Part shown: positions 10,687 to 12,057 of the stretch, in pieces
Layout of the letters: each line of letters starts with the position of its first letter
Position numbering within the stretch: position 1 is the first letter of the stretch
Sequence record: MZ234023.1
Reading direction: 5' to 3' (one strand)
Source: Escherichia phage vB_EcoP-101120B2
Length of the DNA stretch: 39,899 nucleotides
Program-made: the position numbers and the translations under genes
Notes under the pieces: generated by a model
What the model was told of the DNA's origin: nothing
The model's database searches: none
What the model saw: only the letters and a program-made list of their open reading frames with translations

Positions 10687-10794
10687 TCAACACGAAACAA
10701 CGGTGACGACCAACACTGAAACGGTCTACCTGAAGTCCTCTGACTGAAGGGAATGCTCTTTAACAATCTGGATAAACTCTTAATGTGCGCCGAC

Positions 10795-10854
10795 AGTGAT
10801 TAACTACAGGGTCTTTGAGTCTACATCTGAAGGCCCTGACTGATAGTCACTAAC
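10795..10854 (+). repeat. Early-region repeated element copy 1 (AGTGATTAACTACAGG ... CCTGACTGATAGTCACTAAC)
   Basis: About 60-bp element with imperfect terminal inverted repeats. Shares its central segment with copy 4 (11998-12057). Immediately precedes an early ORF. Confidence 0.7.
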
Positions 10855-11117: not shown

Positions 11118-11226
11118 AGTGATTAACTACAGGTCGTTAGACTGATAGCGGCCTGACTGATAGTCACTAACAAGTGATTAACTACAGGTCGTTAGACTGA
11201 TAGCGGCCTGACTGATAGTCACTAAC
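11118..11226 (+). repeat. Early-region repeated element copies 2 and 3, perfect tandem duplication of a 54-bp unit
   Basis: 11118-11171 and 11173-11226 are identical, separated by one base. Same termini as copies 1 and 4 but a different central segment. Confidence 0.8.
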
Positions 11227-11254
11227 ACATAATTAACTTTGAGAGGATATAACT

Positions 11255-11761
11255 ATGGAACGTAATGCTAACGCATACTATGAGCTGCTGGCTGCAACCG
11301 TTGAGGCATTTATCGAGCGTATTCAGTACGACCACCTGACTCAAGATGATGACTACAGCGATGCGCTGCATGAGGTCGTAGACGGTCAGGTTCCACACTA
11401 TTACCACGAGATTTTTACGGTGATGGCTGCTGATGGTATAGACCACGAGTTCGAAGACTCTGGGCTGATGCCTGAAACCAAGGACGTAACGCGTATCCTA
11501 CAAGCTCGCATCTATGAGGCGCTTTATAACGATGTGTCTAATAGCTTGGATGTAGTCTGGTTTGAGGATGAAGAGGCAGAAGAAGAGGATGAATATTGGG
11601 TAGTTGACGCTAAAACAGGCGCAATAATTGTGCAAGCTGTAGCTCTTGAGGTCGCTACTGCATGTACCAAGGTTAACTATGCGGCAGGTCGCCACCTGAA
11701 GGTGGAAGACATCAATGATAACGTAGTGTTCGACCCTGCGGCTGAGGACTGCGAGCGATGA
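11255..11761 (+). CDS. ocr: Ocr-like anti-restriction protein (gp0.3) with ~50-aa C-terminal extension
   Basis: GAGAGGA RBS. Residues ~30-105 ([44 protein letters not shown]) closely match recalled T7 Ocr, followed by an acidic stretch. The ORF continues to 168 aa, whereas T7 Ocr is 117 aa. Confidence 0.8.
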
Positions 11762-11928
11762 TAACTTACGGTTTATGCCAGCACCACGTCACCAACGCCC
11801 GACTTATGGTCAAGACCGGGCGGTTAACCCATGATGAGACTATGCGTCTCCTGAAGGTGGTCTACAAGCGCCGCAAGCGCATACACGACAGTTTGCACGC
11901 TGAGGATAACCAACAATGCTCCAGATAA
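11758..11928 (+). CDS. Hypothetical small basic protein (translationally coupled to ocr)
   Basis: 56-aa ORF whose ATG overlaps the ocr stop (ATGA). Below ORF-track cutoff. No homolog recognised. Confidence 0.3.
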
Positions 11929-11997: not shown

Positions 11998-12057
11998 AGT
12001 GATTAACTACAGGGTCTTTGAGTCTACATCTGAAGGCCCTGACTGATAGCCACTAAC
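11998..12057 (+). repeat. Early-region repeated element copy 4
   Basis: Near-identical to copy 1 (one substitution, TAGTCACT to TAGCCACT). Precedes the ORF at 12074. Confidence 0.7.

Follow-up and report, generated by a model that had tools for sequence, protein, structure and literature searches.

A predicted folded domain inserted within the acidic tail of the DNA mimic Ocr in K1F-like phages

The anti-restriction gene of Escherichia phage vB_EcoP-101120B2 (MZ234023.1), which lies in the 39,899-nt stretch of DNA analyzed here in full (the window), encodes a long form of Ocr in which a module of ~50 aa, confidently predicted to fold autonomously, is set within the acidic tail that follows the Ocr core. 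The module is genuine, dates far back within the Studiervirinae, and was found only as part of Ocr; it is also under selection, one half being held more tightly than the Ocr core and the other being near-neutral or diversifying. The reading that we prefer, to which we assign a probability of roughly 0.45, is that the protein would form a canonical Ocr dimer with an accessory protein-binding head tethered at each tip.

The long Ocr gene and its surroundings

Ocr is the textbook DNA-mimic anti-restriction protein and is known both as an inhibitor of BREX and as a trigger of PARIS. The features of the locus in the window were as follows.

11118-11172 and 11173-11227, plus strand: a 55-nt hairpin element repeated perfectly in tandem, directly upstream of the Ocr gene
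11241-11246, plus strand: Shine-Dalgarno sequence GAGAGG, 8 nt upstream of the Ocr ATG, read from the sequence
11255-11761, plus strand: gene for the long form of Ocr (equivalent to gene 0.3), with an ATG start, 168 codons, and a stop, from the list of open reading frames
11276-11539, plus strand: Ocr DNA-mimic core, aa 8 to 95, from the Pfam match (PF08684) and the match to T7 Ocr (1s7z)
11758-11928, plus strand: downstream gene for a 56-aa protein, equivalent to K1F gp0.35 and of the T7 gp0.4 family (phrog_5058, E = 4e-25)

The open reading frame at 11255 to 11761 and the protein quoted for it in a preliminary description matched the translation of the window exactly, and the homology to Ocr proposed there, acidic tail included, was borne out. 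Pfam profile PF08684 (ocr) matched aa 8 to 95 (E = 3.5e-30; 104.9 bits, with a cut-off of 25), and in a phmmer search of all PDB sequences, aa 11 to 113 aligned with residues 11 to 116 of T7 Ocr (1s7z) through the acidic tail (E = 1e-25), with ~55 residues of the window protein remaining beyond the alignment. In alignments with T7 Ocr and 120 long forms, F54 and its flanking motif were invariant, as were, across the 120 long forms, most of the residues common to the T7 and window proteins. F54 is required for dimerization of Ocr (PMC9122126). The net charge of the core (aa 1 to 92) was -15, and helices were predicted in it at residues 2 to 25, 35 to 59, and 75 to 91 by full-length AlphaFold2 (AF2) modeling.

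The window genome is that of a Kayfunavirus (K1F-like, Autographiviridae), and the window protein was 100% identical to "protein Ocr" of another Kayfunavirus, Escherichia phage vB_EcoP-101120B1-2 (MZ234022). In the annotated context of MZ234022, K1F, and LS3, Ocr sits among small early genes that are followed by the RNA polymerase, and in a comparison of the loci the Shine-Dalgarno sequence of the Ocr gene was kept in LS3, vB_EcoP_F, and K1F. Judged from its sequence, the window protein belongs to the Ocr family, within which it represents an ordinary long allele of the K1F type. The downstream 56-aa gene is labeled in GenBank as hypothetical only; in related contigs, PF26807 (Phage_T7_GP04) is found in the gene that follows Ocr at this position, and T7 gp0.4 is an inhibitor of FtsZ. 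Through the ATGA overlap, this gene is likely translationally coupled to Ocr.

For each copy of the 55-nt element upstream of Ocr, a stable hairpin interrupted by an internal loop was predicted (-22.9 kcal/mol; z = -5.0). MZ234022, the nearest relative in GenBank, has a single copy, and the tandem duplication of the element accounts for the difference in length between the window and that record (39,899 and 39,845 nt, respectively). Related copies were found at 10792 to 10854 and 12043 to 12057, and in the former the lower stem (AGUGAUUA/UAGUCACU) was kept and the upper stem was different in sequence and still base-paired. Since all hairpin copies precede early open reading frames, they resemble RNase III processing sites of the T7 type, and the element is probably an RNA processing site. 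No match to Rfam was found in the early region.

An insertion within the acidic tail

The preliminary description had placed an extra C-terminal module of ~50 aa behind the region shared with T7 Ocr. The presence of an added module of that size on an Ocr family protein was supported by Pfam, phmmer, and the alignments, but the module is inserted rather than appended. In a locus alignment of the window with LS3 (Ocr of 111 aa), vB_EcoP_F (114 aa), and K1F (169 aa), the long forms of Ocr differed from the short ones by 171 nt (11573 to 11743), a clean indel that preserves the reading frame, and both forms end in EDCE(R), use the same stop codon, and overlap the next gene through ATGA. Because the indel is clean and the EDCE(R) terminus is shared, the module constitutes an insertion within the acidic tail, which is divided as follows.

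11564-11590, plus strand: acidic linker EDEEAEEED (aa 104 to 112), of low AF2 confidence and variable in length and sequence
11573-11743, plus strand: 171-nt block that keeps the reading frame, carried by long forms and missing from the short-Ocr relative LS3, from the junction coordinates of the DNA alignment
11591-11740, plus strand: inserted module (aa 113 to 162; EYWVVD...VVFDPA), a predicted autonomous beta-beta-alpha-beta-beta domain
11741-11761, plus strand: terminal acidic tail AEDCER plus stop, common to the short forms, with the stop overlapping the next ATG (ATGA)

The linker varied from ~3 to 25 residues among homologues and showed high column entropy, and inspection of its sequence revealed no in-frame ATG or ribosome binding site that could serve as a separate internal start for the module. 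A foreign origin of the module was rejected on composition, as its GC content was 48.7% versus 49.9% for the genome and its dS was like that of the core. Cys166 (11750 to 11752), in the terminal tail (EDCE or DCDD), was conserved among the Ocr proteins, whether long or short, of Kayfunavirus and of relatives infecting Klebsiella; T7 Ocr has no such cysteine. A zinc site made of C137, H141, H147, and C166 was considered and discarded, as these residues were not conserved across clades.

The full-length protein was modeled by AF2 with an alignment of 120 sequences. Within this model the module (aa 111 to 160) reached a pLDDT of 83 to 87, whereas confidence in the linker was low (pLDDT < 50 at aa 93 to 100 and 103 to 110). 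The pTM of the full-length model was 0.41, and the core and the module are therefore predicted to have no fixed orientation relative to each other. When the 56-residue module was modeled alone, a beta-beta-alpha-beta-beta fold was obtained with a pLDDT of 88.4 and a pTM of 0.71. The module was acidic in every clade, with a net charge of -3 to -10.

Selection was assessed by the Nei-Gojobori method in 45 pairs from ten Kayfunavirus-type genes, among which dS was similar across all partitions. The ratios were as follows.

Ocr core: dN/dS 0.17
Whole module: dN/dS 0.39
Beta1-turn (EYWVVD..TG) plus beta3-beta4 hairpin of the module: dN/dS 0.05
Beta2 plus helix of the module (aa 123 to 149): dN/dS 0.86 (range, 0.36 to 2.0), from only 27 codons in 10 sequences

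By column entropy in 120 proteins, L131, A134, Y142, G145, V150, and P161 were fixed or nearly so, and the helix positions between them varied, each among a few alternative residues. The fast half (beta2 plus helix) is suggestive of an interaction surface; the high ratio in the helix could also reflect relaxed constraint instead of an arms race.

Distribution, relatives, and loss of the module

A tblastn search with the module alone retrieved 71 of 50,697 phage records, always inside a gene annotated as Ocr or gp0.3, and gp0.3 of K1F (169 aa) was among them, with a module 66% identical to that of the window. In a database of 5.8 billion proteins, the best 119 clusters (at 90% identity) were all long forms of 162 to 179 aa, and from these at least 119 long-form clusters we obtained 110 distinct module sequences. 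Among megablast-similar phage records, the module was present in 66 of the 112 records at the level of Kayfunavirus, such that long Ocr is the majority form in this genus and ~40% of close relatives are without the module. Divergent modules (~20 to 27% identical to that of the window, with the same residue pattern) occupied the same position of Ocr in Stenotrophomonas phage IME15, several Aeromonas phages, Escherichia phage Ebrios, and Kosakonia phage Kc166A. Roughly 81 of 572 Ocr-bearing phage records had the long architecture, and carriers of the module include K1F, LM33_P1, and CLB_P1, which are among the phages used against pathogenic Escherichia coli. Across 1.84 billion representative proteins and the 50,697 phage records, the module was never found alone and never fused to another protein.

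Long Ocr proteins were misannotated as "protein kinase" in CY1, ZH4, IME177, and LM33_P1, as "similar to N4-like RNA polymerase" in SHAK7854 and SHAK9454, and as "NinH protein" in CHX131; the unusual length of the protein probably confuses automated annotation. In Ebrios (154 to 609 of its locus extract) and KFSA9 (6 to 461), a SAM hydrolase of the T3 type was located a few hundred bases upstream of long Ocr, and these two phages therefore carry two different anti-restriction genes in one early region.

No profile of Pfam, PHROGs, or PADLOC matched the 56-aa module; phrog_2568 (ocr-like) ran partly into it when the full protein was scanned. A profile search of PDB sequences with the module gave nothing at E <= 10, and a profile HMM of the module run against the 1.84 billion representative proteins returned only two marginal matches, which were repeat proteins recognized through a short VEDxN..GYDP-like motif and were judged irrelevant. 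A word-indexed profile search of the 5.8 billion proteins for free-standing module genes returned only three small open reading frames, all of which turned out to derive from gene 0.3 by frameshift or deletion. With Foldseek, nothing was found below E = 1 in the PDB, with Dmd and AcrIF9 near the top, and nothing below 8.6e-3 in BFVD, where the matches were small uncharacterized phage proteins. No sequence homology was found to T4 Dmd (hhalign probability, 0.09%) or to E. coli ClpS (<0.1%), and for ClpS and the C-terminal domain of L7/L12 neither sequence homology nor a structural match over the full domain of the module was detected. What the module has in common with small phage inhibitor proteins is no more than a simple fold.

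The short forms of Ocr pointed to repeated loss. In LS3, the background of the deletion was window-like on both sides, with N-terminal coding DNA 97.2% identical and ~80 nt after the junction identical, whereas in vB_EcoP_F it was K1F-like (95.6% identical), and the left junctions differed (WFEDEE|EDCER in LS3 versus WFEAEESDEE|EDCE in vB_EcoP_F). That both the backgrounds and the left junctions are different speaks for two or more separate losses of the module, at short GAGG repeats in tracts of acidic codons in either case; GAGG microhomology was found at both junctions of the 171-nt block. Decayed variants of gene 0.3 were also recovered from metagenomes and GenBank. In one of these (P0123; three contigs), a frameshift had separated Ocr (117 aa) from the module, which lay in a separate overlapping frame. 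In another (P0125; three unrelated samples), nearly the whole Ocr core had been deleted in frame, leaving 11 N-terminal residues (MERNTNAYYDL) and half of the module. In a third (P0099), a truncated module was fused to the downstream gp0.4-like gene, and IMEP24 (MZ648215) has a truncated version, its 186-aa protein diverging once the helix has begun and ending in an unrelated C-terminus. Given the natural short forms and these decayed variants, the module is dispensable for viability in some settings.

The preliminary description had envisaged that the extra residues might stem from a sequencing error or might form a disordered, nonconserved, and dispensable extension. Indeed, an artifactual read-through, whether by sequencing error or by recent loss of a stop codon, with a nonfunctional tail as its product, would explain the unusual length relative to T7 Ocr, which is the only observation in its favor. 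We regard it as refuted: the protein is identical in the nearest record (MZ234022), the module is an in-frame insertion followed by a shared terminal tail and stop, it recurs in the 71 independent phage genomes from GenBank and as 110 distinct sequences, its dN/dS as a whole was below 1 in 44 of 44 evaluable pairs, and its fold was predicted with confidence. Disorder of the extension was likewise rejected by structure prediction (pLDDT of 88 for the module alone and 83 to 87 within the full-length protein), and its lack of conservation by the dN/dS of 0.39, or 0.05 on one half. Dispensability held in part, in that the natural short forms of some lineages do without the module, but most of the genus retains it under selection.

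Possible roles of the module and comparison with known systems

The dimer of T7 Ocr is banana-shaped, with the C-terminus of each monomer at the distal tip. In the arrangement that we consider best, aa 1 to ~103 of the window protein would form the canonical acidic helical DNA mimic, which would dimerize and block type I restriction-modification (R-M) and BREX as T7 Ocr does; that the N-terminal part would work as Ocr is indicated by the match to Pfam, by conservation of the motifs shared with T7 (F54 among them), by its acidic charge, and by where its gene lies in the genome. The module would be an independently folding, mildly to strongly acidic domain carried on a disordered poly-Glu/Asp linker, and, by extension from the known structure of T7 Ocr, one copy would be held at each distal tip of the dimer. 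There it would act as an accessory head that binds protein and tunes what the mimic engages, and it could either add a second target in the host or its defenses or alter how Ocr-sensing defenses see Ocr; the preliminary description had likewise suggested that an added domain could change or widen the target range of Ocr. That the module is a structural necessity seems unlikely. T7 Ocr lacking its last 7 to 17 residues keeps anti-restriction activity (PMC3439906), and an insertion in the tail should therefore not disable Ocr. We favor tethered heads because of the tethering at the tip, the linkage to Ocr in three divergent clades, the coexistence of a conserved and a fast half, and the repeated loss; a constrained half, a fast half, and repeated loss together form the pattern expected of a part that is in contest with host defenses. 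A more specific proposal, to which we give a rather low probability, is that the module is a new anti-defense domain with an activity of its own on a DNA-mimic chassis, which might bind a second immune component, blind an abortive-infection system that senses Ocr, such as PARIS, or, more speculatively, act as a ClpS-like adaptor passing the trapped restriction complex on to proteolysis by the host, with the hypervariable helix face as the arms-race interface and the invariant hairpin as the functional or scaffold core.

The module might instead be a passive stabilizer or cap without a target of its own, protecting against proteolysis or aggregation or modulating the stability of the dimer or its expression. 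Its constant fusion to Ocr, its acidity (like that of the remaining protein), the many relatives that do without it, and the lack of a matching functional family would all suit such a cap, but T7 Ocr and most other Ocr proteins work without one, the AF2 model (linker pLDDT < 50; full-length pTM 0.41) showed no fixed packing on the core, and a simple cap is not expected to pair a half with a dN/dS of 0.05 with one of ~0.86. We consider a cap unlikely. The same degree of doubt applies to an independent host-takeover effector unrelated to restriction, such as an inhibitor of a host enzyme, fused to Ocr only so as to be co-expressed with it as the first protein of the early region. A domain that folds autonomously and is flexibly tethered would suit such an effector, and the early region of the T7 group abounds in small proteins for host takeover, the gene after Ocr being of the T7 gp0.4 family; however, the module never occurs as a separate gene in 1.84 billion representative proteins or 50,697 phage records, and the matches to its fold were not significant (hhalign against Dmd, 0.09%). 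It is also fused at the same position of Ocr in three divergent clades, and the maintenance of this fusion favors a function linked to Ocr.

Ocr, like other small acidic proteins, is sensed by PARIS (PMC9122126, PMC11464382). We also considered an anti-sensor shield, in which bulky heads at both tips would keep abortive-infection systems that sense Ocr, such as PARIS with its protein AriA, off the mimic while inhibition of type I R-M and BREX is retained. AriA forms a hexamer, and the sensing apparently proceeds via its positively charged pores (PMC11464382, PMC9122126); moreover, recurrent gain and loss together with a fast-evolving surface fit an arms race. [quoted passage not shown]

The long-Ocr architecture itself is not new and has been in GenBank since gp0.3 of phage K1F. 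A full-text search of the literature gave no description of long Ocr or its module, and genome papers merely list the long form as Ocr, e.g., as a protein of 169 aa in a Hafnia phage. As far as the libraries and literature that we searched extend, it has not been described that the extra residues constitute a distinct folded and selected domain, that this domain sits inserted in the Ocr tail, or that it recurs over several lineages of Studiervirinae with repeated loss. A domain that is folded, selected, and repeatedly lost at the tips of the mimic suggests that the Ocr chassis has been extended in the arms race between phage and host. LS3, which lacks precisely 11573 to 11743, provides a natural deletion control. 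If the module has a target of its own, it would be a new small anti-defense domain; if it has none, a common oddity of annotation would still be explained.

Compared with known systems, the first ~103 residues of the window protein are homologous (E = 1e-25) to those of T7 Ocr (gp0.3; PF08684; 1S7Z), with which they share the helical acidic core, the PHYY..IF..MA motif, the motif containing F54, and the acidic tail, and both genes occupy the same early position upstream of the phage RNA polymerase. T7 Ocr, however, is 117 aa in length and ends in the acidic tail, whereas the window protein (168 aa) carries a folded domain of ~50 aa and additional linker within that tail and ends in the Cys-containing EDCE(R), which T7 Ocr does not have. 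The same two-part architecture is found at the same locus in K1F gp0.3 and other "ocr-like anti-restriction" proteins of Kayfunavirus (162 to 179 aa), from which the window protein differs by allele only (residues of the helix and beta2, and the linker). In the long Ocr proteins of IME15, the Aeromonas phages, Ebrios, and Kc166A, the core and acidic linker are followed by a module that is more acidic than that of the window and shows a like pattern, consisting of an aromatic-W/Y-V strand, a hairpin, an L/F-E-x-A helix, Y..G, a V-E-D strand, and aromatic-x-P. The T4 Dmd antitoxin, AcrIF9, ClpS, and the C-terminal domain of L7/L12 bear a weak resemblance to the module in fold, as expected for a simple fold of 50 residues.
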